From Methylocystis sp. (GTDB taxonomy: Bacteria; Pseudomonadota; Alphaproteobacteria; Rhizobiales; Beijerinckiaceae), in assembly GCF_050251305.1 (NCBI RefSeq), contig NZ_JBFWNB010000001.1:65044-129043 (forward strand): 64,000 nucleotides of DNA, given 5' to 3'. Every line of letters begins with the position of its first letter. The stretch's first letter is position 1. The position numbers and the translations under genes are program-made. The notes beneath the pieces are model-generated. The model was not told where the DNA came from. It ran no database searches and was given only the letters and a program-made list of their open reading frames with translations. Positions 16,642-40,034 of the stretch are shown one piece after another.

Positions 16642-17223
16642 CTACTTCGCTTTTGGTGGGCACTTGCCCGGCGGATTGTCCGGCAGCGTCTCGTGGCCCG
16701 CATAGGGCTTGAAAGCCTTGCGCTGATCGTCCGTCAGCCAGGTCGCTTTCTGCGGATCGTCCTTGAAGAGATGCCTCACCCAGGCCATGACCTGCAGCAT
16801 CTCGTCGAGCGTCAGGTTCTGATACTGTGGGCCCATCGACGCCTGCGCGCCGCCATAGATCGTCGAAAAGAACCCTTCGTCGGTTTCATTCTGCGGATAG
16901 GTCCAGTAATCGTCGTTGAGGCCGGGGCCGATCTTTCCTTCGCCGAGATGCCCGTGACACCCTGAGCACGCGGAAAGAAACAGCTGTTCGCCCTGCTTCA
17001 GGCAGCTTGCATCCTCGTTGTAGGGATTTTTGCCCGTCGCCATGAATTGCTTGACGCCTTCCGTGTCTTTTCCCTCGGGCAACGCGTCGTCGAAGTTCAG
17101 CACTTCGCCGGTGATCGTATTGCGGAACGTAATTCCTGCGGTTTGCGCGATGGCGCCGAGCGCGATGAGCGAAGCCGCAGCGCCGACGAGAGACAGGGAC
17201 AGTCCTTTGTTGCGTTTCAACAC
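16642..17223 (-). CDS. mxaG: Cytochrome cL
   Basis: [23 protein letters not shown] heme motif, [12 protein letters not shown]. Confidence 0.96.
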
Positions 17224-17264
17224 TTAATTTTCGTCCTGTTTGTTGGCATGCGCGCGCGGCGCAT

Positions 17265-18173
17265 TCATTGACCGACGGGAAGAAGGGGAACGCCTTCCGC
17301 CTTGAGAATTTCATCGATTTTCGGACGGGCGGCGACGAGCGCCTTGTCGACTTCCGCCAACAAGGCTTTGTCGTCGCGCCGCACCGCGATCGACTGGTCG
17401 AACCGCTGCGGCACGTTTTCGCCGCTGCTCTTCACCGCGTCGTCTTCGATCAGCGTCATGCGCAAGGGAGTCGCCGACCCCTTGACATAGCGCGCGACGT
17501 CAGGCGCGAAACCGACCGCAATGTCGGCGGCGCCGCTGATCACCTCGCCGACCATGCGGCCGGGATCAATCTGCGTGTACTGATTGCGCGGCGATTTGAA
17601 ATTCACCAGCGAATAGAGATAGGCCATGTTGTCTTCATACTGGCCCATATCTTTGAGCAGCGTTTCGCCGGGAGAACCGAACGCCACGACGATGTGGCCA
17701 AGCTTTTTCAAGCGCGGATCGGACCAGGATGCGATGTCAAGGCCGCGATCGGCGCGGCTGACGAAGACATAGCCGGTCCGATAATAGGGCTTCGATGTCG
17801 CCACGCGCGGATCGCCGGCGTCGAGGCCGATGATGACGTCGCAGAGATTCTTGTCGAGAGAATCGCGCACGAGATAGATCGCCGGCCGTTGCGACCAGAC
17901 GAATTGCGCCTTGCGTTTCATCGCGTCGGCGAGCGCCACGCCGATCCTGTTCTCAAGACCGGAGCCGTCTTCCATTGACAGCGGCGGCTGATTCTTCGCC
18001 GCGCAGATGCGAAGCGTATTGGGATCGGGCGGCGGAGCCTGTTCGGCCGTGGGCGCGGCGTTCGATCCGGCGTCGCTGGAGCCGCCAAAGGAGGCGCCCT
18101 GCGCGCCGACGGTCGCGAAAGCGACGAGGAGCGCGCCGCCAAAGCCGAGGGACAAGCGAGTGATGCGCGACAT
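17265..18173 (-). CDS. mxaJ: MxaJ periplasmic solute-binding-like protein
   Basis: LRICAAKNQPPLS, KPYYRTGYVF, VNFKSPRNQYTQI; start reassigned to 18173. Confidence 0.95.
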   Translation of the reverse strand: MSRITRLSLGFGGALLVAFATVGAQGASFGGSSDAGSNAAPTAEQAPPPDPNTLRICAAKNQPPLSMEDGSGLENRIGVALADAMKRKAQFVWSQRPAIYLVRDSLDKNLCDVIIGLDAGDPRVATSKPYYRTGYVFVSRADRGLDIASWSDPRLKKLGHIVVAFGSPGETLLKDMGQYEDNMAYLYSLVNFKSPRNQYTQIDPGRMVGEVISGAADIAVGFAPDVARYVKGSATPLRMTLIEDDAVKSSGENVPQRFDQSIAVRRDDKALLAEVDKALVAARPKIDEILKAEGVPLLPVGQ

Positions 18174-18285
18174 GATTCTATTTTCCGTGATCAATTCGAT
18201 CGCCTGCTCGGACGCACGGGGGCGCATCCGAGCAGGCTTCTCACAACCCTCTTGAGGGTGGAGCGATCGATGGAGCGGCCGGCGA

Positions 18286-20160
18286 TCAGTTCGCCTTGTA
18301 TTCGCCGAGACTCAGATCGTCGTAGGGACCCTTGCCGTTAAGCGAGAACACCATCACGCCGCCGCCCATCTGGGTATAGTTGGCGAGTTGCTTGAAGGCG
18401 CCGACCGCGCCGAGACCCGCCGTCGGATCCTGGAGGTCGAACACGAGGCCGACTCCCGGCCAACCGCCGACGCCATACATGATGGCGACATATTCAACGC
18501 CATTGTGCTGGTAGACGATCGGGTGGCCGATGACTCCCGACGGCAGCTTGAACTTCCACAGCAGTTCGCCGGTGTCGCTGTGACGGGCCTTGATGAAGCC
18601 GTCGAGCGTTCCGTAGAAGACGACGTTGCCGGCCGTGGCGGCGGTGCCGCCCCACACGGCGAAGCGCTCCATCTTCTCCCATTTGAACTTGCCGGTGATG
18701 GCGTTGTAGGCCTTGATCTGGCCGAGGCCTTCACCCTTCTGACGATCGCCCTTCGGACCCGGATACATGTTCAGCGTCGCGCCGACGAAGAACTGACCCG
18801 CGCGATAGGGAAGCATGAAGGGCTCCCAGTCCATGCAGATGTGGTTCACGCCGAGGAAGAACAGCTCCTTGGTCGGATCGTAGGAGTCGAGGCCCTGGTT
18901 GTGATAGCCCATCGCCGACGGGCAGACGTCCTTGGCGAGATGGTCCATGCGCGTGCCATATTCCGGATCGCGCACCGGCAGGCCGCTCTTCAGATCGACC
19001 TTCTTGAAGACATTGACCGTGTCGTCGATCTTGTCGGCGGAGATCAGCGTGCCGTCGGTGCGATCGAGCGTGTAGACGATGCCGTTGCGGTCGGGATGGG
19101 TCAGCAGCTTGCGCGGCTTGCCGTCCTTGTCCTTCTGCTCGCTGAGCATCATGAAGTTGATGCCCGCATAGTCCCATTCGTCATGCGGCGTCTTTTGATA
19201 GCCGAACTTCGCCTCGCCCGTATTGAGGTCGCGGCCCCAGATGGTCATCGTCCATTTGTTGTCGCCCGGCCGCATGGTCTCGTTCCACGGGGCGGGATTG
19301 CCGCTGCCGTAATAGACGAGATTTGTGCCCGGATCATAAGCGAACCAGCCCCAGTTGGTGCCGCCGCCGATCTTCCAGGCGTCGCCTTCCCAGGTCGCGG
19401 TGCCGAGACCCTTCTGACCATAATGCGGATTGGCCTTGTTGAAGTCGTCGCCGATCAGCACGTCCGAATCGGGACCCGTCGCATAGGCGCGCCACTTCTG
19501 TTCGCCGGTGCGCACGTCATAGGCTGTCATATAGCCACGCACGCCGAGTTCGGCGCCCGAGCTGCCGATGAGCACGATGTCCTTGTAGATGTGCGGAGCG
19601 ACGGTCAGCGTCGAGCCGACCTTGAAGTCGGAGTTTTCGATTTTCCAATATTCCGCGCCGGTGTCGGCGTTCAGCGCGACGACATGGCCGTCAAGCAGCG
19701 TCTTGACGACGAGCGACGGCGTCTTTCCGTCGCCGGGCCAATACGCAAGGCCGCGATTGACGATGTCGCAGCAGGCGACGGCGCGCGCGGCGGCGTTCTG
19801 CTTCGGCTTATGCTGCCAGAGAATGCGGGTCGGATCGTCAAGATTGAGGGCGAAGGTGTTGTTGGGGAAGGACGTATGAACATACATCTTGCCGTCGATG
19901 ACGATCGGCGACCCTTCGTGGCCGCTCAGCAGGCCGGTCGAGAACGACCATGCGACCTTCAGATTCTTGACATTGTCGGCGTTGACCTGGTTCAGCGCGC
20001 TGTAGTGATTGGCGCTGTAGTTCTTTCCCTGCATGGCCCAGTTGTTTTCGCTCTTCGTCAGAGCTTCGAGCTTGTCCTCGGCGACCGCGGCGGACATCGT
20101 CACCACCGGCGCCGCGATCAGCACGGACAACAAGGACACGGAATTCAGCAGTTTCCTCAT
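18286..20160 (-). CDS. mxaF: Ca2+/PQQ methanol dehydrogenase large subunit
   Basis: ACCD vicinal disulfide; HDEWDYAG with Ala at the position of the lanthanide-binding Asp of XoxF; GGAGGA RBS before the ATG at 20160. Confidence 0.99.
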
Positions 20161-20584
20161 GGACGAGTCCTCCTGCAACGTCGCCCGGACGCCTTCACGG
20201 CTTCTTGGACGGCGACGTCGCCTCGCAGATAGACGGCCAAAATGCAGCCGTCATGGGTTATCGACGGTCGCTTAGTCCCGCTGCGCATCGGCGCAAATTC
20301 GGGATGACGATCCGCGGGCATATAAGTTTATGCGCTCGGCCGAGTCTTCACGATTTATCGGTAATGTGTCTCGGGAATGATCGGCATATACGTTCCCGAT
20401 GCTTCCCGGCGCCTTGGCGCTTGACGAAGATTCGCGCACGGATTTTGTTGACGGAATCGCCTTCGCTGCATTTAGAGAACAAATCTTGGACGCTCTTACG
20501 CCGAGCAATTCGCCTGCATCCCCAACGCGCGCCTTTCCGCTCACGCTGCGCCGGTCTGGAATTCGTCGCGGCACGGTCGCCGTC

Positions 20585-23743: not shown

Positions 23744-25114
23744 TCAAGACATCTCCACCACAGGGAAAGACACGTTGAATGTCGCGCCGCCGCCAGGCGT
23801 GTCCTCGACCCAGATGCCGCCACGATGCGCATCGATGAGCTCTTTGGCGATGGCCAATCCCAAGCCCGTGCCTGGAATAGAGTCATTCTTGCGCCAGAAG
23901 GGCTCGAAGATCAGATCGCGGTCCAACTGCTCGACGCCGCATCCATGATCGATCACCTTCAGCGTTCCATCGTCGGCGACGCGAACGTGAACCGTGCCGC
24001 CTTCAGGCTCGGCGCGAAGAGCGTTGTCAATGACATTCGCGATAACCGATTCGAGCGCCGGCCGATTGCCCTTAATGAGCACAGGCGCGCTGGGCGCGTC
24101 GAGAACGATCTGGCGCCGCGCCTTCAGCGCCAGAAGCGCGGCGTCCGCAATCATCGTTCGCGTCAACGCGACGAGGTCGATCGTTTCATCGAGCGTCGTC
24201 GATTGTTCGCCGAGCCGCGCGGAAGCGAGCAGCTGCTCGACGATGTTGCGTATGCGACGATGATCGCGTTTCAGATCATTCTTGAAGGTCGGCTCCTCGG
24301 GCGCGTCAAGCCGCACGCCCAGCACATTGATGGGCGTGCGGAGCTCATGCGCGGCATTTGCCGTAAAACGCTTTTGGCGGGCGACGCCGGCGTCGAGCCG
24401 CGCCAACGCGTCGTTGACCGCGTCGACGAGGGGTCCAACTTCGCTCGATACGTCATTTGCGTCGAGACGTTGGTCGAGGCAGTTCATGTCAATCCGGGAC
24501 GCCTGCTCCGCCACGCGTCTGAGCGGCCTTAGTCCCCAGCGCACGGCGAACCAGCCTGCGCCGGCCGACATGACGATCGCCATGACGAGGTAGGCGGTCA
24601 ACCAGCGCATTTCCTCTATGGCGGCGTCGACGATGTCGCTGGCGCGGAATTTCTGTCCGTATACGGCGACATGAAGGCGGCCGAACGGAGTCGATGACGG
24701 CTCCATAAGGCCTGCGCGAATGGCGCTCGGATCGCCTGGCAACACAAAATGCACATGGGTCGGACTGATCTCGATAAGCGGCCGCAGCATCGCGACGAGC
24801 TCAGGCGACGACCCCGCAACGGGCTCACGGCTTAGCTTCCTAAACGCCGCGAACTTCATGCCGGGCGCGCGCTTTAGATCTTCAAGCAGGCCTGGCGTCG
24901 GCCTGATCTCCAGCATTTTCTCATCGTTCAGCGTCAACGAGGCGATAACCTGCTTTTTCGCGCGAATGGCCGACAGCTCATCGAGCGAGGTCGCGAAAAT
25001 TTCGACGCCTGTGAGGCCAAGGCCCACCGTCACCAGCCAGGCGATGGTGAAGGCGATGATCTGTGCAAGAAATAGACAGCCGACGATGCGCCATACGAGC
25101 GAGTGTCGTCTCAA
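23744..25114 (-). CDS. Sensor histidine kinase (HAMP-HisKA-HATPase)
   Basis: FTANAAHELRTP, NVIDNALR, GTGLGLAI; TTG start overlaps the regulator stop. Confidence 0.93.
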   Translation of the reverse strand: MRRHSLVWRIVGCLFLAQIIAFTIAWLVTVGLGLTGVEIFATSLDELSAIRAKKQVIASLTLNDEKMLEIRPTPGLLEDLKRAPGMKFAAFRKLSREPVAGSSPELVAMLRPLIEISPTHVHFVLPGDPSAIRAGLMEPSSTPFGRLHVAVYGQKFRASDIVDAAIEEMRWLTAYLVMAIVMSAGAGWFAVRWGLRPLRRVAEQASRIDMNCLDQRLDANDVSSEVGPLVDAVNDALARLDAGVARQKRFTANAAHELRTPINVLGVRLDAPEEPTFKNDLKRDHRRIRNIVEQLLASARLGEQSTTLDETIDLVALTRTMIADAALLALKARRQIVLDAPSAPVLIKGNRPALESVIANVIDNALRAEPEGGTVHVRVADDGTLKVIDHGCGVEQLDRDLIFEPFWRKNDSIPGTGLGLAIAKELIDAHRGGIWVEDTPGGGATFNVSFPVVEMS

Positions 25115-25788
25115 TCAAGCAACTCCGTCGTGATGTAACCGACGCCGCGAACGGTGTGAATGGCGACGCCGGCGTCCAACGCCACGAGCCGTCGACGCAG
25201 ACGCGACACAGCCATGTCGAGCGTATTGTCCTGGACATCTTCGTTTGGAGAAAACACATCATTGAGAAGCGTCTCACGCGAAACGACGCGATTGACTCGT
25301 CGCAACAGAGATTCGAGCAGGACTAACTCGCGCCGATGCAAAATGACCGGCTTGCCCGCGATCCGGACATCGCGCGTCGCGAGATCAAAATATAGCGCGC
25401 CCACCGCAATCGGCTTCGGCGCGCCGCTTCCCGGACGTCGAACGCAGGCGCGTATTCTCGCAACCAGCTCCTCTCCTTGAAACGGTTTCGTAACGTAGTC
25501 GTCCGCGCCCAGATCGAAGCTCGACACCTTCTCTCCCGTGTCGTCCATCGCTGTCAGCATCATGACGCGGATGCCCGGCTGCAACTCCCGCGCCAGCGGC
25601 ATCAGCGAGAGGCCGTCACCATCAGGAAGACGACGATCGAGAAGCAGAAGATCGTAATTTGATCGCGTCACCGCGTCGCGCGCCGCGCTCAGACTGTGAG
25701 CTTGATCCACGTCGAATCCGGCCTGAGAGATCAACGACGCGGTGAGACGCGCCGCATCCAGCTCGTCTTCAACAAGTAAAAGTCGCAT
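25111..25788 (-). CDS. OmpR-family response regulator (QseB/BasR-like)
   Basis: LLVED, DLLLLDRRLPDGDG, GADDYVTKPF, SRLRRRL, IHTVRGVGY. Confidence 0.95.
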   Translation of the reverse strand: MRLLLVEDELDAARLTASLISQAGFDVDQAHSLSAARDAVTRSNYDLLLLDRRLPDGDGLSLMPLARELQPGIRVMMLTAMDDTGEKVSSFDLGADDYVTKPFQGEELVARIRACVRRPGSGAPKPIAVGALYFDLATRDVRIAGKPVILHRRELVLLESLLRRVNRVVSRETLLNDVFSPNEDVQDNTLDMAVSRLRRRLVALDAGVAIHTVRGVGYITTELLD

Positions 25789-25916
25789 ATGGGCGCCGCT
25801 CCCGTTCTGTCTCGCCGATTATCGATTTCAGTCGCCGAATGCGCAAGACGCCGGCGCGAAAGGGCCAGCTGTTGCCCTAAAGACACAGCGCCTCGGATTT
25901 CGCGCCAAAATCGCTC

Positions 25917-25943
25917 ATGTCAGGTTCTTGTCAGGCGTGTCAG
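25917..25943 (+). promoter_or_regulatory. TGTCAG direct repeats (OmpR/PhoB-type 7-4-7 operator candidate)
   Basis: ATGTCAG-GTTC-TTGTCAG (11 bp period) plus a third TGTCAG at 25938, between the regulator and the leader ORF. Confidence 0.5.
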
Positions 25944-25985
25944 CTTCGCTTTGGCTATTTTCAGTCGCACAAGACGAAGACGGCG

Positions 25986-26432
25986 ATGATGCGGGCGATC
26001 CTAAACCATACGGCAAAGACGAGCGAGAACGCTCACAGATGCTTGAAAGGCGTCCGTGCGGTTCTGTTCGGCTTGGTCGTATTCGTCATGGCGGTCCAGG
26101 GCGTCGCCCTCGCATTGTCCCGGGCGCAAGCCGCGTCACATGAAGGCGTTGCCGGCGTCTCGACCGCGGCTTCCGTCGATTGCGCGCGAGAGGATTCGCG
26201 CGCGCCGTCGAACGACGGGCGCGCCCATCAATGCTCTCTGGCGGGGCTTTGTTGTTTGGCGAGCTGCGAGCGGCAGACGTCCTTTGGCCTCGCGGGAACG
26301 GCGTTTAGCGCTGCGGCCTTCAGCCGGTCGGCGACTGACCGGGTCGAGCCGTCGGCGCCCGTGAGGCGCCGCGTCAGACCCGCCGGCTGGGCAAGCGCCT
26401 GGTCTTCGCGCGCGCCGCCGCAGACGGCCTGA
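25986..26432 (+). CDS. DUF2946/CruR-like upstream regulatory ORF with a RAPP arrest motif
   Basis: Hydrophobic N-terminal segment (VLFGLVVFVMAVQGVALAL), Cys cluster (HQCSLAGLCCLASC), C-terminal WSSRAPPQTA*; 80 bp upstream of a TonB receptor. Start 25986 or 25989. Confidence 0.75.
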   Translation: MMRAILNHTAKTSENAHRCLKGVRAVLFGLVVFVMAVQGVALALSRAQAASHEGVAGVSTAASVDCAREDSRAPSNDGRAHQCSLAGLCCLASCERQTSFGLAGTAFSAAAFSRSATDRVEPSAPVRRRVRPAGWASAWSSRAPPQTA

Positions 26433-26512
26433 TTCGCGAATCGCGTCCCTCACAGATCAACCTGCCCCATCTCGTCGCTCGAGCGTTCTCGCAATCGCTC
26501 TGGAGTCCATCA

Positions 26513-28867
26513 ATGAACTCGTCCGTCCTCCTGCGCGGCGTTTCCGCCTGCGCGCTGCTGTTCGCCTTGGCGCCTGAATGCGCCCACGCCCAGCAAGCAT
26601 TGCCAACAATCAGCATCGGCGGGCGTCAGCGCGCGCCATCGACGCAGATTTCGGGTTCGCCAACAGGAGAGTCGGCCACATCCGGCTCCGGTCCGTCGTC
26701 AAATTTTCCGAGCGAGCCGAAGACGCCCGCCGAAGGCTATGTGGCGAATGACGCGACCACAGGCACAAAGACCGACACGCCGCTCAGAGAAACGCCAGCG
26801 TCGGTGAATGTGGTCCCCAAGCAAGTGATGCAAGACCAGAACGATACGAGCGTTCAGGAAGCCCTGGAAAACGTTCCCGGCGTTCGCTCGAACAACAACG
26901 ACCTTGAAGGATATAATTTCAAGATCCGGGGCTTCGACAGTCTCTATATCTATCGCAACAATCTCGCGATTCCCGCTGGCGAATCCAATCCCAGCGGCTT
27001 CGACACCGCCAATCTGGAGCGAATCGAAGTCTTGAAGGGCCCTGCGTCAGTCCTCTACGGACGCGCGGAACCGGGCGGATTGATCAATCTCATCACCAAG
27101 CAACCGCTCGACCGCGCCCGCTACGTTGTCGATCAACAGTTTGGATCGTTCAACTGGTATCGCACTCAGTGGGATTTTACCTCGCCCATTGCTGAGGCTC
27201 CGGGTCTCGCCTACCGCTTCACCGGCGCCTATCAGACCAACGGCTCGTTCCGGCGCTTCCAGGGCGGCGAGCGCATGCTCCTGGCGCCCGTCGTGAGTTA
27301 CCGTCCGACCGCCTGGACCGAGTTCACGGCCGAGGGCCAATTTCTTGCGCAGAAGGCTCAAAGCGACATCGGCGTCCCGGCCTACGGATCGACGCCGGCG
27401 CCGATACCGCTCAGCCGCTCGTTTCAGGAGGCGAACGATCCGCGCGACCGGATCGACAGTTTTAACGTCGGCTATAAATTTCGGCAGAACATCACCGAAG
27501 ATTGGAAGGTCACGAATCGCTTTCTCTATTCCGCGACGACGAATTTCCAGAAACCGAACGTTTCATTGTTTTGCACCACGCCCTATTGCGTGGATCCGGA
27601 TATGCGAACGCTGCAACGCATCGTCCAATACCAATCTTTGACGGGCGGCACATTTTCGACGAACGTCGACCTGGAAGGAAAGTTCTGGGCGCTCGGCGGC
27701 AAGCATGACTTTCTCATGGGCCTCGACTATCTGAACGGCCTTTACGACTACTATTTCGGCGACGGCGGCGCTCTTTATCCGATCGACATTTTCTCTCCGG
27801 TCTACGGAACCGTGCCTTCCTTCGCCTATTGGAGCGCGCAAGCCGGCACAGGATACAAGAGCCATTCGTCTGTTCTCACCAGACAGAAGGGACTGTACGT
27901 TCAAGATCAGGTCACCTGGTTCGAACGTCTGCATTTGCTGGTCGGAGCGCGATTTGATGTCGCCGACGTCACTAGGGGCCGCTCCAGATCCTCTGGCGGC
28001 GACTACAGCGCGAACAAATATTTGGCGATTGACAATCGACTGGCCGCACAGACGCGCGTCGATCGGGCCTTGACCCCGCGCGCCGGAGTCGTTTTCGACG
28101 TCGTGCCCGAATTGAGCGTTTATGGCAGCTATTCGCGTTCGTTTGGCGTCAATAACGGCTTCGACGCCAACGGACAATCATTGGGCCCGCAGCGCGGCCA
28201 GCAATGGGAGGTCGGCCTCAAGGCGGAGCCCAGACCTGGCCTTTCCGCAACGCTCGCCTTCTTTCAAATCACAAAAACAGGCGTGCCGACCCGAGATTTC
28301 GCGTCGTTAGATCCTTCCGCCGTGACGCTCGCCGGCCTTCAACGCAGTCGAGGCATCGAATTGGATGTCTTGGGGCGATTGACCGAGCGATGGAGCCTCA
28401 CGGGCAATTTCGCTTATATCGACGCCAAAGTTATTGCCGACAATTTCGTAAATCGGCTCAATCCTTTCGGATTGCTGGACCCTGCGATTTTCGGGGAACA
28501 GGGCGGCCTGCTTGGCAATCATCTCGACAATGTTCCCCGCCATTCGGGCAAAGTTTTCCTTGTGTATGATTTCGGCGACAACGGCTTGGGGCTGCGCATC
28601 GGCGGCGGCGTCACGGCTTCCACCCATGCCTGGGGCGACATCCAGAATACGTTTCTCATCCCGGGCTGGGCGCGGCTTGACGCCTTCGCGAGCTACGCGA
28701 CGCTCGTCGACGGTCATAAACTGACGGCGCAACTCAATCTCAAGAACATCAACAATGCGCAATATTATACCGGCGTCGACAACTTCTTCAATTATTACAC
28801 CCCGCCTCTGCCTTCGTTTCCCGCGAAGCCGTTTACGGCGACGGGGCAGCTAAGAGTCGAGTTCTAG
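26513..28867 (+). CDS. TonB-dependent receptor
   Basis: Signal peptide, TGTKTDTPLRETPASVNVVP, ERIEVLKGPASVLYG, NLKNINN, C-terminal Phe (LRVEF). Confidence 0.96.
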   Translation: MNSSVLLRGVSACALLFALAPECAHAQQALPTISIGGRQRAPSTQISGSPTGESATSGSGPSSNFPSEPKTPAEGYVANDATTGTKTDTPLRETPASVNVVPKQVMQDQNDTSVQEALENVPGVRSNNNDLEGYNFKIRGFDSLYIYRNNLAIPAGESNPSGFDTANLERIEVLKGPASVLYGRAEPGGLINLITKQPLDRARYVVDQQFGSFNWYRTQWDFTSPIAEAPGLAYRFTGAYQTNGSFRRFQGGERMLLAPVVSYRPTAWTEFTAEGQFLAQKAQSDIGVPAYGSTPAPIPLSRSFQEANDPRDRIDSFNVGYKFRQNITEDWKVTNRFLYSATTNFQKPNVSLFCTTPYCVDPDMRTLQRIVQYQSLTGGTFSTNVDLEGKFWALGGKHDFLMGLDYLNGLYDYYFGDGGALYPIDIFSPVYGTVPSFAYWSAQAGTGYKSHSSVLTRQKGLYVQDQVTWFERLHLLVGARFDVADVTRGRSRSSGGDYSANKYLAIDNRLAAQTRVDRALTPRAGVVFDVVPELSVYGSYSRSFGVNNGFDANGQSLGPQRGQQWEVGLKAEPRPGLSATLAFFQITKTGVPTRDFASLDPSAVTLAGLQRSRGIELDVLGRLTERWSLTGNFAYIDAKVIADNFVNRLNPFGLLDPAIFGEQGGLLGNHLDNVPRHSGKVFLVYDFGDNGLGLRIGGGVTASTHAWGDIQNTFLIPGWARLDAFASYATLVDGHKLTAQLNLKNINNAQYYTGVDNFFNYYTPPLPSFPAKPFTATGQLRVEF

Positions 28868-28869
28868 CG

Positions 28870-30093
28870 ATGGCCCGCGGACTTTTCGTGCGGCTGCATC
28901 GCTGGGCGGGACTTGCGATCGCGGGCTTTCTCATTCTCGTCGGTCTGACGGGAAGCCTGCTCGCCTTCTGGCTTGAGATCAACGCTTGGCTGACGCCCGA
29001 ACTCTATTCCGGCCCACGCGCCGGCATAGAACTCGGCGCGGCGACGCTTGCGCAACGCGCAGAATCCATCGTTCCGCAGGCGCGAGCGACGACAGTTTAT
29101 CAAGGTTATCCCGGCTCCGCGATGATCGGCATGAAGGCGCGCGACGGCGCGACGCCGCTCGACTTCGAATACATCCATCTCGATCCGATCGATGGCCAGG
29201 AGCGCGGCCGCGTGTCGTGGCATGGTCTGCCAAGGCGCAAAGCCGACATCATGCCGTTCGTCTACGGCCTGCATATGTATCTCGCGATGAGCGGGATCGG
29301 CGAATGGATTCTCGGCGCGGTGGCGCTTCTCTGGACGCTCGATTGTTTCGTCGGCTTCTATCTGACGCTGCCCATGCGCGGCGAGCGCTCAAAGAAGAGC
29401 TTCTTTGCGCGTTGGAGGCCGTCATGGCTGGTGAAGCTCAAGAGCTCCTTCTATCGCGTCAATTTCGATCTGCATCGCGCCGCCGGCCTGTGGCTCTGGG
29501 CGATGCTGCTCGTCTACGCCTGGTCGAGCGTGTTGTTCACGCTGCCGAACTTCTATACGCGCGTGACGCAGCTCGTTCTCGATTACGAAACGCCGGTCTG
29601 GGCGCAGCGGGGAGCGCCGCAGACCGACGGGCGCGCGCCGATGGAATGGGAAGAAGCGCAAGCGACCGGCGAGCGGCTGATGGCCGAACTGGCGCGCCGG
29701 CACGGCTTCGCGATCGAACGCCCGCTGGCGCTCTATCATCTTCGTGACAAGGGCCTTTACGAATATCGCGTGCGCTCGTCGCGCGACATCGGCGACAAGG
29801 CGGGGTCGACCTCGATTCTGTTCGACTCACGCTCGGGCGAACTGAAGACGCTGAGCCTGCCGACGGGCCATCGCAGCGGAACGACGCTGACCACCTGGCT
29901 CGTCGAACTGCATATGGCCAATCTCTTCGGCCTTCCCTACCGCATCTTCGTCTGCCTTTTCGGGCTCGTCATCGCGATGCTTTCCGCAACCGGCGTTTAC
30001 ATCTGGTGGAAGAAGCGTTCGGCGCGGGTCGCGCATGCGCGGGGAACAGTTGCGCGGCCGGCGCCGGCCGCGCGATCGCCCGCGCGATTTTGA
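28870..30093 (+). CDS. PepSY-associated TM helix protein (FoxB/PiuB-like membrane reductase family)
   Basis: RLHRWAGL, LHMYL, NFDLHRAAGL, ELHMAN, SATGVYIWWKKR. Confidence 0.92.
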   Translation: MARGLFVRLHRWAGLAIAGFLILVGLTGSLLAFWLEINAWLTPELYSGPRAGIELGAATLAQRAESIVPQARATTVYQGYPGSAMIGMKARDGATPLDFEYIHLDPIDGQERGRVSWHGLPRRKADIMPFVYGLHMYLAMSGIGEWILGAVALLWTLDCFVGFYLTLPMRGERSKKSFFARWRPSWLVKLKSSFYRVNFDLHRAAGLWLWAMLLVYAWSSVLFTLPNFYTRVTQLVLDYETPVWAQRGAPQTDGRAPMEWEEAQATGERLMAELARRHGFAIERPLALYHLRDKGLYEYRVRSSRDIGDKAGSTSILFDSRSGELKTLSLPTGHRSGTTLTTWLVELHMANLFGLPYRIFVCLFGLVIAMLSATGVYIWWKKRSARVAHARGTVARPAPAARSPARF

Positions 30094-30115: not shown

Positions 30116-30448
30116 ATGGAGCGAGACATGGATTTCGATCGAATCAAAGGCGGTCATTTCATCCAGAATCTGCGTCGCGCGCTGCCTTTGCCGGCGCATG
30201 CGAGACCGGCGCTCATCGCTTTTCTGCGCGAACGCGGCGTCATCGCGCGCGGCGCGCCGCGACTGATCATTCTCGATGTCTTCGACGCCGGCGCGGCGGG
30301 CGGACTGATGTGCCGCTTCTCCATCGCCGATGGCGCCGAGGCTTCGAGCTTTATCGCGCCGCTCGCGCAGGTCGCGCTCGAGCGCAAACATCCGGAGCGT
30401 CCGCGCCTCCTGCGCCGCCGGCAGGCGCCGCCGTCCGGCGCGGCATGA
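30116..30448 (+). CDS. Hypothetical protein coupled (ATGA overlap) to the second TonB receptor
   Basis: Sits between the PepSY gene stop (30093) and the receptor ATG (30445); ends RRRQAPPSGAA*. Confidence 0.6.
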   Translation: MERDMDFDRIKGGHFIQNLRRALPLPAHARPALIAFLRERGVIARGAPRLIILDVFDAGAAGGLMCRFSIADGAEASSFIAPLAQVALERKHPERPRLLRRRQAPPSGAA

Positions 30449-32538
30449 GGGCGACGCTCGTCGCGCTCATATGTGTCTGCGTCGGCGCCGCCCAGACGTT
30501 CGCCGAGGAAGTGCAGGAAAAGGAACGCAAGGAGAAACTGCAAAGCGCAGGCAAGCAGCGCGGCATGGACGAGACCGACGATAAGGCGCCGAGCAAGGCG
30601 CGGAACAGGGAACGCAGCCAGATCGAACGGCGCAACGTTGCGGCGCCCAATGCGCAGACTCTGGGGCGCGATCAGAGCGGCGTCTATGTCAACGCTCCCG
30701 CGACCAACTCCGCCTTTTCGCCCGAATTCGTCATGCGCGGCTTTCCGGCGGGAGTGACGCTGTTCGACGGCGCTTCGCATGGCTTCACCGCCCAGAACGT
30801 CGATCTCTCGACCGTCGATCATGTCGAGTTCTACAAGGGCCCGAGCGCCATGCTGTTCGGCAAGGCGCTCGGCGGCTATGGCGGCGCCGCCGACTACATC
30901 CGCAAGGCGCCGGTCGAGGCGACCTTCGCCCGCGGCGCCGCGACCAAGGCCAGTTTTGCCGTCACCCGTCTCACCGCCGACGTCAACGCCCCGCTCAACG
31001 ACGACAAGAGCCTGCTGTTCCGCATGACCGGCTCGGCGCAGAGCCTGGGCGGCTTCGTCAATTTCACGCGCACGCGCAGTTTCGACATTGCGCCGATGCT
31101 GGCCTTCGCCGCAGACAATGGCGATCGTGTCAGCCTGCGCGCCGAACACAATGGCGGGCGGCTCGTCTACCGTGACGGCGTCCCTGCCGATCCGGTGTTT
31201 CTGCATGTCCCGCGCGAGTTTTACGCGGGTCTGCCGGCCAATGAACATGAGACGCCCTTCTTCGACGATGTCACGCTGCGCTATGAGCACGCCTTCGACG
31301 CCGATTGGAAACTCGCCGCGGTCGTCGATTATTTTTTCTACGCCAATCGCTGGGGGTGGTTCACGGGCTGGGGCTATGACGGCTTTCAGTCCGTCGTCTT
31401 CGGCAATCCGGTTCGCGCCCGCACCGCCAACCGCAGCTTCGACGCGCAATTGCGCCTGAACGGCCGCTTCGACACAGGCTTTCTCTCCCACGCCGTCTTT
31501 CTCGGCCTCGAACAGTGGGACTTCTATTTCGGCTACAACAATGACGTCGCCCGCTATGAAGCGGCGCCGCTCAATATCTTGGCTCCCTTCTATTCGCCGG
31601 GCGTCAGCTACGCGGGCGCCTATTGGTCGAATGGCGTCGCGCGCGCGATCAGCCGCTCGATCTATGGCCAGGATCTGATCGATCTGAACGAGAACTGGCG
31701 CATCTTGATCGGCGGACGCTACGATCTTCTGGCGCAGCGCGAACGCGTCTTCGATCCCTTCGGCGCGCTGACCGGCGACCCGACCGCGAGTCTGAGCAAA
31801 GGGACCAAAGGCTATTTCAACCCGCGCGCCGGCGTTCTCTACCGGCCGGACGAGGAGACGCAGCTCTTCGCCGCCTATGGCAAATCGCTGATCCCCAACA
31901 CCGGCGTGCGCATTCAAAGCGGCGAAGCGCCGCCGCCGCAGCAGGACACACAATATGAGCTGGGCATGCGCCACGAATTCCTGGACCGCAAGATGCGTTT
32001 CGAGGTCGGCCTCTTCGACATCACCCGCGACAATGTCGCGATCCCCAATCCGGCCAATCCGAGCGGCTTCTATTCCGTCGTCACCGGCCAGCAGCACAGT
32101 CACGGCATCGAGGTCAATCTCGGCGCCGAGATCCTGCCAAACCTCAAGATCAACGCCGTCGCCACCTTCCTGCACGCGCTTGTCTCGAAGGACGACAATA
32201 TCCCGTCGCAGCAGGGCAGCGATCTCCTGGGCGCGCCGCGGCGCGTCTATAATTTCAACGCCAGCTACGCCTTCGACTCGGGAGACTTCAAAGGACTCGA
32301 ACTCGGCGTGAGCTATTATTACGCCAGCCGCCTCGAGGCGACGCTGCCCAACACCTATGGCTTCACCCTTGCCCCGCAACAGATGCTCGGCGCGACGCTC
32401 GCCTACACCATCAACGACACTCTCAAATTCGAACTTGTCGCCGCAAATCTGACGAACCAATCCAACTGGACGTCGAACGGCGCCCTCTATCACGGGGAAC
32501 CGCGTTCAATCGCCGCAAGCGTCAGCTGTCGATATTAA
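30445..32538 (+). CDS. TonB-dependent receptor (second)
   Basis: Start reassigned to MRATLVALIC; FVMRGF, DHVEFYKGPSAMLFG, barrel strands, ends VSCRY. Confidence 0.92.
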   Translation: MRATLVALICVCVGAAQTFAEEVQEKERKEKLQSAGKQRGMDETDDKAPSKARNRERSQIERRNVAAPNAQTLGRDQSGVYVNAPATNSAFSPEFVMRGFPAGVTLFDGASHGFTAQNVDLSTVDHVEFYKGPSAMLFGKALGGYGGAADYIRKAPVEATFARGAATKASFAVTRLTADVNAPLNDDKSLLFRMTGSAQSLGGFVNFTRTRSFDIAPMLAFAADNGDRVSLRAEHNGGRLVYRDGVPADPVFLHVPREFYAGLPANEHETPFFDDVTLRYEHAFDADWKLAAVVDYFFYANRWGWFTGWGYDGFQSVVFGNPVRARTANRSFDAQLRLNGRFDTGFLSHAVFLGLEQWDFYFGYNNDVARYEAAPLNILAPFYSPGVSYAGAYWSNGVARAISRSIYGQDLIDLNENWRILIGGRYDLLAQRERVFDPFGALTGDPTASLSKGTKGYFNPRAGVLYRPDEETQLFAAYGKSLIPNTGVRIQSGEAPPPQQDTQYELGMRHEFLDRKMRFEVGLFDITRDNVAIPNPANPSGFYSVVTGQQHSHGIEVNLGAEILPNLKINAVATFLHALVSKDDNIPSQQGSDLLGAPRRVYNFNASYAFDSGDFKGLELGVSYYYASRLEATLPNTYGFTLAPQQMLGATLAYTINDTLKFELVAANLTNQSNWTSNGALYHGEPRSIAASVSCRY

Positions 32539-39257: not shown

Positions 39258-40034
39258 TCAACGCGCGCCGACGCCGCTCAGCGGATTTTCCGGATCATAG
39301 CCGTAGCGCACGGTCTCGAAACGCATGCCGTGCGCGTCGATGAGCAGCAGGCGGCCCACCAGTCCCTCGCCGAAGCCGACGATCTCGCGCACGACCTCAA
39401 GCGCCATCATGGCGCCGACGGTTCCGGCGAGCGCGCCGAGAACGCCGGCTTCCGCGCAGGTCGGGATTTCGCCCGGCTGCGGCGGGATCGGAAACAGGCA
39501 ACGATAGGTCGGGTTCGGCCCATCGGCGCCCTGCTCGAATGGCCGCAGAGTCGTCAGCGACGCGTCGAAGCCGCCGAGCGCGGCGGTGACGAGCGGCTTT
39601 CTTTCGTAAAAGCACGCGTCCGAGACGAGATAGCGCGTCGCGAAATTATCCGTGCCGTCGGCCACGATATCATAGCGCGCGATCAGCGCGCGCGCATTCG
39701 CCGCGTCGAGCCGCAGCGCATGCGGCTCGACGGCCACATGCGGATTGATGCGCGCGACGGCGTCTTGCGCGCTGTCGACCTTGGCGCGGCCGACGTCCTG
39801 CGTCGCGTGAATCACCTGACGCTGCAGATTCGACAGCGAAACGGCGTCGTCGTCGACGACGCCGAGCGCGCCGACGCCGGCCGCGGCGAGATATTGCAGC
39901 AAGGGCGCGCCGAGCCCTCCCGCGCCGACGACGAGAACGCGCGCCGCCTTGAGTTTGCTTTGCCCGGGCCCGCCGATGTCGCGCAGCACGAGATGCCGGG
40001 CGTAGCGTTCGATCTCTTCAGGCGAAAGGCTCAA
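39258..40034 (-). CDS. moeB: MoeB/ThiF-family adenylyltransferase
   Basis: RYARHLVL, VGAGGLG, SNLQRQ, DGTDNF, YRCLFP...TCAEAGVLG. Confidence 0.88.
   Translation of the reverse strand: MSLSPEEIERYARHLVLRDIGGPGQSKLKAARVLVVGAGGLGAPLLQYLAAAGVGALGVVDDDAVSLSNLQRQVIHATQDVGRAKVDSAQDAVARINPHVAVEPHALRLDAANARALIARYDIVADGTDNFATRYLVSDACFYERKPLVTAALGGFDASLTTLRPFEQGADGPNPTYRCLFPIPPQPGEIPTCAEAGVLGALAGTVGAMMALEVVREIVGFGEGLVGRLLLIDAHGMRFETVRYGYDPENPLSGVGAR

Follow-up and report, generated by a model that had tools for sequence, protein, structure and literature searches.

A diverged DUF2946/CruR-family leader ending in RAPP as a candidate regulator of a TonB receptor-PepSY_TM operon in Methylocystis

The stretch of DNA considered here, called the window throughout, comprises 64,000 nucleotides (nt) of Methylocystis sp. 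(assembly GCF_050251305.1, contig NZ_JBFWNB010000001.1, positions 65,044-129,043 of the forward strand). It contains a unit in which a short leader open reading frame (ORF) precedes the genes of a TonB-dependent receptor (receptor 1), a PepSY_TM membrane protein, a small protein and a second TonB-dependent receptor (receptor 2), with a histidine kinase and its response regulator encoded divergently (Table 1). The original prediction, made from the DNA letters alone, described a leader ORF with one hydrophobic helix, a C-x5-CC-x3-C cluster and an R-A-P-P motif at 26409-26420, followed by an 80-nt spacer, a TonB receptor and a PepSY_TM gene in a methanotroph-like genome. All of this anatomy was recovered, and the genome is that of a methanotroph. 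On the evidence presented below, the leader is very likely a RAPP arrest leader that controls the downstream operon.

Table 1. Features of the leader, its operon and the divergent two-component system (window coordinates)
Feature	Position	Strand	Remarks
Sensor histidine kinase	23744..25114	-	two transmembrane segments, HAMP, HisKA, HATPase_c (Pfam)
Response regulator, OmpR/PhoB-type	25111..25788	-	Response_reg and Trans_reg_C; kinase partner
Divergent control region	25789..25988	.	200 bp, nearly all of it conserved in 13 orthologues
Blocks invariant in 13 orthologues	25794-25803, 25818-25824, 25842-25849, 25870-25875, 25879-25888, 25929-25937		25879-25888 reads AAAGACACAG
GTCAG direct repeats	25919, 25930, 25939		11- and 9-bp spacing
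CTATTT, -10-like element	near 25955		
Leader ORF	25989..26432	+	147 amino acids; putative regulatory nascent peptide, diverged DUF2946/CruR family
N-terminal hydrophobic helix / signal anchor	26061..26117	+	residues 25-43, VLFGLVVFVMAVQGVALAL
C65	26181-26183	+	invariant in 13 orthologues
Putative metal-binding loop H80-x-C82-x5-C88-C89-x3-C93	26226..26267	+	
Cys codons of the loop	C82 26232-26234, C88 26250-26252, C89 26253-26255, C93 26265-26267	+	
C>G bubble (rut-like, C-rich/G-poor RNA)	26376..26660	+	arrest-motif codons, spacer and first ~150 nt of receptor gene
Candidate arrest motif G-W-A-S-A-W-S-S-R-A-P-P	26385..26420	+	invariant or nearly so in 39 loci
Spacer	26433..26512	+	80 nt; GGAG at 26503-26506 ahead of receptor ATG
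TonB-dependent receptor 1	26513..28867	+	784 amino acids; Plug and barrel, siderophore-receptor class
PepSY_TM membrane protein	28870..30093	+	407 amino acids; FoxB-like; Pfam 190 bits
Small ORF	30128..30448	+	106 amino acids; stop overlaps receptor 2 start (ATGA)
TonB-dependent receptor 2	30445..32538	+	697 amino acids; last gene of putative operon

Two adjacent ATG codons, at 25986 and 25989, could open the leader frame, giving 148 or 147 amino acids (aa), respectively. Alignments of 13 orthologues retain the second, from which residues are numbered here; the frame proposed originally was right, while its start at 25986 is replaced by the conserved one. Public gene calls of leader orthologues are often over-extended to 170-215 aa and reach into the divergent promoter region; the corresponding stretch of the window is 25917-26432, and the conserved start again matches 25989. 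The N-terminus is basic, with Lys and Arg residues preceding a hydrophobic helix in which the mean Kyte-Doolittle value reaches its maximum of 2.58, and a putative A-Q-A signal-peptidase-like site can be read after the helix. An N-terminal signal peptide or Nin-Cout transmembrane (TM) segment is a trait of the DUF2946 family that the leader shares. Its middle is of low complexity, rich in Ala and Ser, and holds C65, H80, C82, C88, C89 and C93. When modeled by AlphaFold2 (AF2) with a family alignment, only the TM helix is ordered, with a predicted local distance difference test score (pLDDT) above 90, and the remainder stays below 60. The GC content at third codon positions is 0.77, like that of the adjoining genes. 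A word-indexed search returned 12 homologues at 58-65% identity, which belong to Methylocystis wherever a source is named; an exhaustive profile search added 37 further, more distant representatives, with 40 recovered in all.

The tail of the leader reads G133-W-A-S-A-W-S-S-R141-A-P-P144-Q-T-A-stop, with RAPP encoded by CGC GCG CCG CCG and the stop codon TGA at 26430-26432. The pattern W..WSSRAPP, followed by two to six residues and a stop, is present in 39/39 loci with a readable tail (35 from a scan of one genome per species and four fetched by exact protein), down to approximately 25-30% identity, and the 12 close homologues end in GWASAWS[SA]RAPP plus 2-3 residues. In an alignment of 30 sequences spanning 18-66% identity, W138, A142, P143 and P144 are the sole invariant columns, with G133, W134, S139, S140 and R141 nearly so. 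The whole segment N-terminal to RAPP, G-W-[AT]-S-[AS]-W-S-S, is nearly invariant in 30 diverse members, a pattern that we infer to support arrest. RAPP is among the most depleted tetrapeptides of bacterial proteomes, and in vitro CruR has been shown to arrest at this motif while the third codon occupies the P site (PMC12992588). Arrest with one Pro at the P site and another at the A site has been reported for ApdA, ApdP and CruR (PMC10951233, PMC12992588); by analogy, the predicted stall in the leader would place Pro143 (26415-26417) in the P site and Pro144 (26418-26420) in the A site. A six-frame survey found the leader to be the only credible ORF of the 64-kb window that ends in RAPP, a short tail and a stop. 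A second ORF, at 39938 (+, frame 1), has RAPP immediately ahead of its stop; it is arginine-rich and out of frame in a GC-rich region and was judged to be a chance occurrence.

The same conservation bears on whether the leader functions through its translation or as a finished protein. A small exported or membrane-anchored metal chaperone, whose RAPP has no regulatory role, would account for the signal anchor and for the conservation of Cys and His residues; a relative, CutF of Rhodobacter capsulatus, was first proposed as a chaperone (PMC8456105). Such a protein would not be expected to keep RAPP near the stop in every one of the 39 loci while the remainder drifts to ~25% identity, nor to carry a tetrapeptide that proteomes strongly avoid (PMC12992588). 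Since AF2 predicts no folded domain, and since the leader is always the first gene with a long C-rich spacer after it, this role is considered very improbable. The reading preferred here, held to be probable, is that the leader acts through its translation as a CruR-type copper leader that gates the operon by way of Rho.

Turning to the Cys loop, C65, H80, C82, C88 and C89 are invariant in the 13 orthologues. Two of them (L005 and L010) have Tyr in place of C93, and three more distant members lack this Cys, so the conserved core is (H)-x-C-x5-CC. Canonical members of the family, including paralogues from the same methanotroph genomes, carry C-C-x-x-C, and the last Cys of these methanotroph paralogues lies 48 or 51 residues before the Arg of RAPP. 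In the clade of the window the four loop Cys residues are placed 58, 52, 51 and 47 residues before that Arg, a spacing that is constant within the clade; the distance from C89, 51 residues, equals that of canonical paralogues and is shifted from the Bordetella value (45 +/- 2). Profile alignment with hhalign maps the canonical C-x-x-C onto C82 and C89, with a four-residue insertion, A-G-L-C, between them. A nascent chain of 47-58 residues is approximately the length at which the loop has just cleared the exit tunnel when the ribosome reaches RAPP.

Judged by sequence comparison, the leader is a diverged member of the DUF2946/CruR family, of which CruR of Bordetella pertussis and CutF are prototypes. 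This assignment follows from a match to the Pfam DUF2946 profile (PF11162) that, though below the gathering score, runs end to end (profile positions 3-117 of 117), from PF11162 matches in 12/30 aligned relatives (best E 2.8e-8), and from the hhalign link between the clade of the window and the canonical CCxxC clade (98.9% probability, E 2.5e-17). Together with the 39/39 occurrence of RAPP, the profile link sustains the earlier view of a CruR/DUF2946-like leader with a C-terminal RAPP at the head of a receptor-PepSY_TM operon.

Beyond the stop codon, the RNA is unusually rich in C. When scanned in 78-nt segments, the size used by Roy et al., C exceeds G continuously over approximately 26376-26660 and peaks at 42% C versus 24% G at 26402-26479. 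Over the 70 nt that follow the leader stop, the (C-G)/(C+G) skew is +0.33, as high as in 1% of all 70-nt segments of the 64 kb on either strand. Spacer skew ranges from +0.22 to +0.43 in all 13 orthologues and is positive in 37/39 loci. A C>G signature of this kind pointed to a Rho-dependent terminator between cruR and bfrG (PMC9426467), and by analogy the composition of the spacer fits CruR-type control through Rho-dependent termination. A terminator scan around the leader found no intrinsic terminator in the spacer, and Rfam returned only chance-level scores there with no family matched. Spacer length was 60-85 nt in the orthologous and diverged loci that were folded. As a separate observation, a sediment metatranscriptome contig from an M. 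rosea-like relative (L007 6320-6569, run X16; 90-95% identity) extends from the 3' end of the leader across the spacer into the receptor gene, of which it includes the first ~45 nt; it weakly suggests that leader and receptor are co-transcribed in environmental relatives, although carry-over of DNA is possible. For M. rosea, three RNA runs held ~5% of the words and the contigs were fragmentary.

RNA structure is relevant to a different logic, that of CutF, in which metal on the exported nascent chain would induce or prolong stalling and the parked ribosome would melt a helix that hides the receptor start, so that metal means ON or translation is what is controlled. The leader has a Sec-type signal anchor, and CutF is itself a DUF2946 protein (bioRxiv 10.1101/2025.02.05.636593). 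Moreover, RNAalifold proposes a long-range helix between the RAPP codons (~26407-26427) and receptor codons 4-9, both arms of which are almost invariant, and it appears in the minimum free energy fold of the window and of 6/14 related loci. It is absent in the other 8/14, and the spacer folds no better than shuffled sequence (z = 0.44). No real covariation was found for the helix, with 3 compensatory pairs among 47 and an unfavourable alifold term of +1.44. An importer switched on under abundant metal would also be maladaptive, and the motif is RAPP as in CruR, which is independent of elongation factor P (EF-P), in contrast to the EF-P-dependent proline repeat of CutF. For these reasons, CutF-type control is regarded as unlikely, and the long-range helix is retained solely as a possible second layer.

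The genes that follow the spacer resemble siderophore systems. Receptor 1 scores 270 bits against TIGR01783 (cut-off 223.5) and has no STN signalling domain at its N-terminus. Its closest match in the PDB is FetA, the enantio-pyochelin receptor (3qlb, 5e-54, 187 bits), followed by FoxA and FhuA at ~1e-47. The original prediction had drawn a comparison with the BfrG operon; B. pertussis CrtA (9RVQ) matches in the plug only (49 bits, E 2.7e-12) and receptor 1 does not cluster with CrtA (9RVQ/9RVX), so it is not of the CrtA/BfrG kind. The cargo had also been thought to be possibly of methanobactin type, which is left without support since no mbn genes adjoin the operon in the window. Two nucleotides downstream, the PepSY_TM protein aligns over its full length with FoxB, a ferrioxamine reductase that depends on haem (7abw, E 2.2e-56, residues 3-387 versus 2-378), and H10, H135, H202 and H349 align with His residues of FoxB. 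From this likeness it is a putative periplasmic-face haem reductase that presumably binds haem. Receptor 2 is 23% identical to receptor 1 and scores 116 bits to FoxA versus 60 bits to CrtA.

Such cargo raises the question of which metal is sensed. The leader mechanism could be alike with the remodeled Cys loop sensing iron (or Fe-S), zinc or thiol redox, in which case the operon would serve to take up xenosiderophores in the manner of FoxA/FoxB. In favor of this possibility are the siderophore-receptor score and nearest neighbors of receptor 1, the FoxB match of the PepSY_TM protein, the replacement of CXXC by C-x5-CC, and the presence in the same genomes of paralogous leaders with a canonical loop, which suggests a division of labour. 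Every characterised DUF2946 leader is copper-responsive, however, and the canonical-loop paralogues of methanotrophs precede PepSY_TM proteins that are 42-60% identical to that of the window, so FoxB-like cargo alone is no argument against copper. In the region 25701-26000, no Fur box (19-mer, 7-1-7), Irr iron control element or RirA iron-responsive operator was detected at permissive thresholds; this result is neutral, though iron systems usually carry such a box. A signal other than copper is viewed as rather improbable, and copper is favored as the signal with modest confidence.

The expectation that synteny and RAPP would be conserved among relatives was borne out. A BLAST of all loci against the window proteins located the unit in 12 orthologous loci. 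At the loci compared, orthologous or not, the leader invariably stands in front, with a TonB receptor after it and in most cases a PepSY_TM gene as well. The common order consists of kinase and regulator in divergent orientation, then leader, receptor 1, PepSY_TM, an ORF of ~105-109 aa and receptor 2. It is identical in M. hirsuta, Methylocystis sp. MitZ-2018 and an ENA assembly, while the outer flanks differ. Of this unit, the original prediction had named the leader, receptor 1 and PepSY_TM gene correctly, while the two-component system, the small ORF and receptor 2 had escaped notice. The arrangement is unchanged in four diverged metagenome members with C-x5-CC. Paralogous units occur in Methylosinus, Methylocapsa and other Methylocystis contigs, with identities of 40-56% for kinase and regulator, 31-57% for the receptor and 28-60% for PepSY_TM. 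By the scan of one genome per species (loci L004-L038), there are five RAPP leaders in Methylosinus sporium UOS2 (on the chromosome and two plasmids), four in Methylocapsa aurea, three in strain LW5 and two in at least five other genomes.

The divergent two-component system belongs to the same unit, and its regulator is 84-91% identical in orthologous loci. The best NCBIfam match of the kinase is TIGR01386 (heavy-metal sensor kinase), which scores 156 bits against a cut-off of 292 and covers the cytoplasmic part only. Assignment to a known metal sensor was rejected as both kinase and regulator fall below every NCBIfam cut-off. Between the regulator and the leader, the invariant blocks and GTCAG repeats may represent response-regulator sites and a promoter, and the 11-bp spacing of the first two repeats would suit a regulator of the OmpR/PhoB type. 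A scan for the sigma-70 consensus around the leader found nothing. The two-component system probably adds a transcriptional input, for example the presence of substrate. PfeSR and PirSR of Pseudomonas offer a comparison for an input of this type.

The anatomy, homology, conservation, synteny and C>G bubble are observed; how stalling, metal and Rho act, and in which direction control runs, is proposed as follows. The ribosome would arrest at R141-A142-P143 / P144, three codons before the stop, at which point C82, C88 and C89 (and C93 in most orthologues) would lie 47-58 residues behind, just outside the exit tunnel. While a thiol-binding metal is scarce, the ribosome would stay on the start of the C-rich, G-poor stretch and keep Rho from loading or from catching the polymerase, so that the operon would be read through from receptor 1 and PepSY_TM to the small ORF and receptor 2. 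Binding of metal to the nascent Cys loop would release the arrest, the ribosome would terminate, and the naked C-rich RNA would recruit Rho, which would stop transcription in or just after the 80-nt spacer. The metal would most likely be copper, as Cu(I), because of the family precedent and the thiol ligands, with the two-component system as a second, transcriptional input. The outer-membrane importer and the FoxB-like reductase would then supply reduced metal to the periplasm, the compartment that houses the copper sites of particulate methane monooxygenase (pMMO); the conserved unit contains no inner-membrane transporter, which fits such delivery. Repression by metal is proposed on two grounds, the nature of the cargo as an importer and the RAPP motif shared with CruR, and a scheme in which stalling means ON through Rho is rated at slightly better than even. 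In CruR, mutations in RAPP abolish downstream expression, mutations in CXXC abolish copper control, and bicyclomycin abolishes repression (PMC9426467).

Several observations weigh against copper control of the CruR type. The strict CXXC hallmark is absent, with a C-x5-CC core in its place across the whole clade; the non-canonical spacing had already been recognized in the original prediction. The PF11162 profile, suggested at that time as a check, matches the leader at 18.3 bits (E 0.004), below the gathering score of 23.7. Both the receptor (FetA/FoxA/FhuA) and PepSY_TM (FoxB) are of siderophore type and not of the CrtA/CrpH type, so the metal could be other than copper. Were the ribosome parked at 26415, no more than the 5' edge of the C-rich stretch would be covered, and Rho could then be held off only with the polymerase pausing close behind the ribosome. 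The DUF2946 relative CutF works by the opposite logic (bioRxiv 10.1101/2025.02.05.636593). Finally, the window sequence was seen only in landfill metagenome DNA runs.

Among known systems, CruR (Bp2923) of B. pertussis resembles the leader as a small ORF of DUF2946 type that has an export signal at its N-terminus, carries a Cys motif and keeps RAPP three residues from its stop. As in cruR-crtA-crpH (PMC9426467, PMC12914433), the leader comes first, followed by a TonB-dependent transporter and PepSY_TM; in both, the long spacer contains a C>G bubble and lacks an intrinsic terminator, and the mature protein is predicted to be unstructured. They differ in the Cys motif, which is C-x5-CC(-x3-C) here by virtue of the four-residue insertion, in the distance from Cys to RAPP (47-51 residues here, 45 in CruR) and in the spacer (80 nt here, 162 nt in the CruR operon). 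The receptor here lies outside the cluster of CrtA, whose ligand-site residues include the essential His358. CrpH falls in a sequence cluster other than that of FoxB and has functional His residues at 200 and 444 (PMC13038864); set apart from CrpH in this way, the PepSY_TM protein of the window has the layout of FoxB, which it matches in size and sequence. The divergent two-component system, the 106-aa ORF and the second receptor are further departures from the cruR operon.

CutF (cutFOG; PMC9973294, bioRxiv 10.1101/2025.02.05.636593) shares with the leader its DUF2946 character, a Sec signal, a metal site of Cys and His and, at the C-terminus, an arrest motif that contains proline; the gene under its control is the one that follows. 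There, stalling is brought on by copper and unfolds a stem-loop that covers the ribosome-binding site of a multicopper oxidase for detoxification, and the mechanism needs EF-P and the signal peptide. The cargo here is an importer instead, and no significant stem-loop is present. The arrest peptides ApdA, ApdP and SecM (RAGP) also have an R-A-P-P core near the C-terminus with a conserved segment just N-terminal to it (PMC7897499, PMC10951233, PMC10987492). They monitor Sec or YidC activity upstream of protein-localisation genes, unlike the leader, which is upstream of metal-uptake genes and carries a Cys loop. The FoxA/FoxB system of Pseudomonas aeruginosa (PDB 6z8a, 7abw) has the same pairing of a TonB receptor with a four-His PepSY_TM reductase. 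FoxA, however, carries a signalling domain at its N-terminus and is under the control of Fur and of a sigma/anti-sigma pair; STN domain and Fur box are both lacking here, where an arrest-peptide leader and a two-component system take their place.

CruR was described in 2022 together with a survey of more than 2000 homologues, which often precede genes for TonB-dependent transporters and PepSY_TM proteins, and a 2025 study reported RAPP/RGPP upstream ORFs ahead of TonB-related genes across Gram-negative bacteria. Since both the mechanism and its wide distribution before TonB receptors are published, the present locus extends known biology and offers no new principle. A full-text literature search combining DUF2946 with methanotroph returned nothing beyond the CruR paper. 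New here are the break in CXXC, cargo that resembles FoxA/FoxB and not CrtA/CrpH, the constant association with a divergently encoded two-component system, a conserved 106-aa protein and another receptor, and the presence of multiple such leaders in alphaproteobacterial methanotroph genomes. Copper sets the choice of methane monooxygenase and the activity of pMMO, and the sensors behind these effects are poorly known. If the proposal is true, a nascent-peptide metal sensor would be a direct control point of the metal supply of Methylocystis, and the natural variant of the Cys loop would be a ready test case for the metal specificity of CruR-type leaders.

More speculatively, the AGLC insertion may retune the input of the leader. 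Candidate inputs may include another metal, another copper affinity or oxidation state, or periplasmic thiol redox. A FoxA/FoxB-type pathway for metallophore import and reduction would be gated by two inputs, leader and two-component system, and the leaders of methanotrophs, up to five in each alphaproteobacterial genome with their own Cys loop and receptor module, would be a set of nascent-chain metal sensors and constitute an undescribed post-transcriptional layer of the copper response. This wider picture is tentative and, taken whole, doubtful.

The 106-aa protein has no Pfam or NCBIfam match. Its homologues form 67 clusters, of which those with a named source are Methylocystis hypothetical proteins, and they share an invariant motif, G-x-x-C-R-F. 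The AF2 model (pLDDT 75) consists of a helix and a small SH3/Tudor-like beta-barrel; a structure search with it gave nothing significant, with the best PDB match at E 0.09. Copies of the small ORF also stand beside a module of extracytoplasmic function (ECF) sigma factor, FecR and receptor on a Methylosinus sporium plasmid (L036 11016-11366, 11903-12316). Scans for intrinsic terminators and sigma-70 promoters after receptor 2 found nothing relevant.

Other observations concern paralogous leaders and the flanks of the unit. In Methylosinus sporium, strain LW5 and a Methylocystaceae metagenome-assembled genome (MAG), paralogous RAPP leaders (L022, L034, L036, L038) precede genes for an ECF sigma factor, a FecR-like anti-sigma factor and a TonB receptor with an STN domain, where an arrest peptide would control a sigma factor cascade. 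No mbn genes follow these modules. In a Methylocella MAG (L021 1916-4552), a RAPP leader is followed by a 533-aa unknown protein with a Tat-like N-terminus and an enzyme of the MbnB/TglH/ChrH family (DUF692). In M. hirsuta (L001 815-3336), the kinase gene has a bufferin-like cluster (BufA1, MbnB-family, HvfC_N, DoxX) ~5 kb upstream, and L003 has an MbnB-family gene ~7 kb upstream; the window has neither at this position. Lanthanide uptake (LutH-like), an idea raised by a pyrroloquinoline quinone (PQQ)-dehydrogenase cluster upstream and by PMC12482762, was set aside, a Cys-based sensor being ill suited to hard Ln3+. The cluster itself (16642-20178, - strand) encodes a PQQ-dependent alcohol/methanol dehydrogenase-like protein of 630 aa, an SBP_bac_3 protein and a c-type cytochrome, a layout that resembles xoxF-xoxJ-xoxG and is consistent with a methylotroph.

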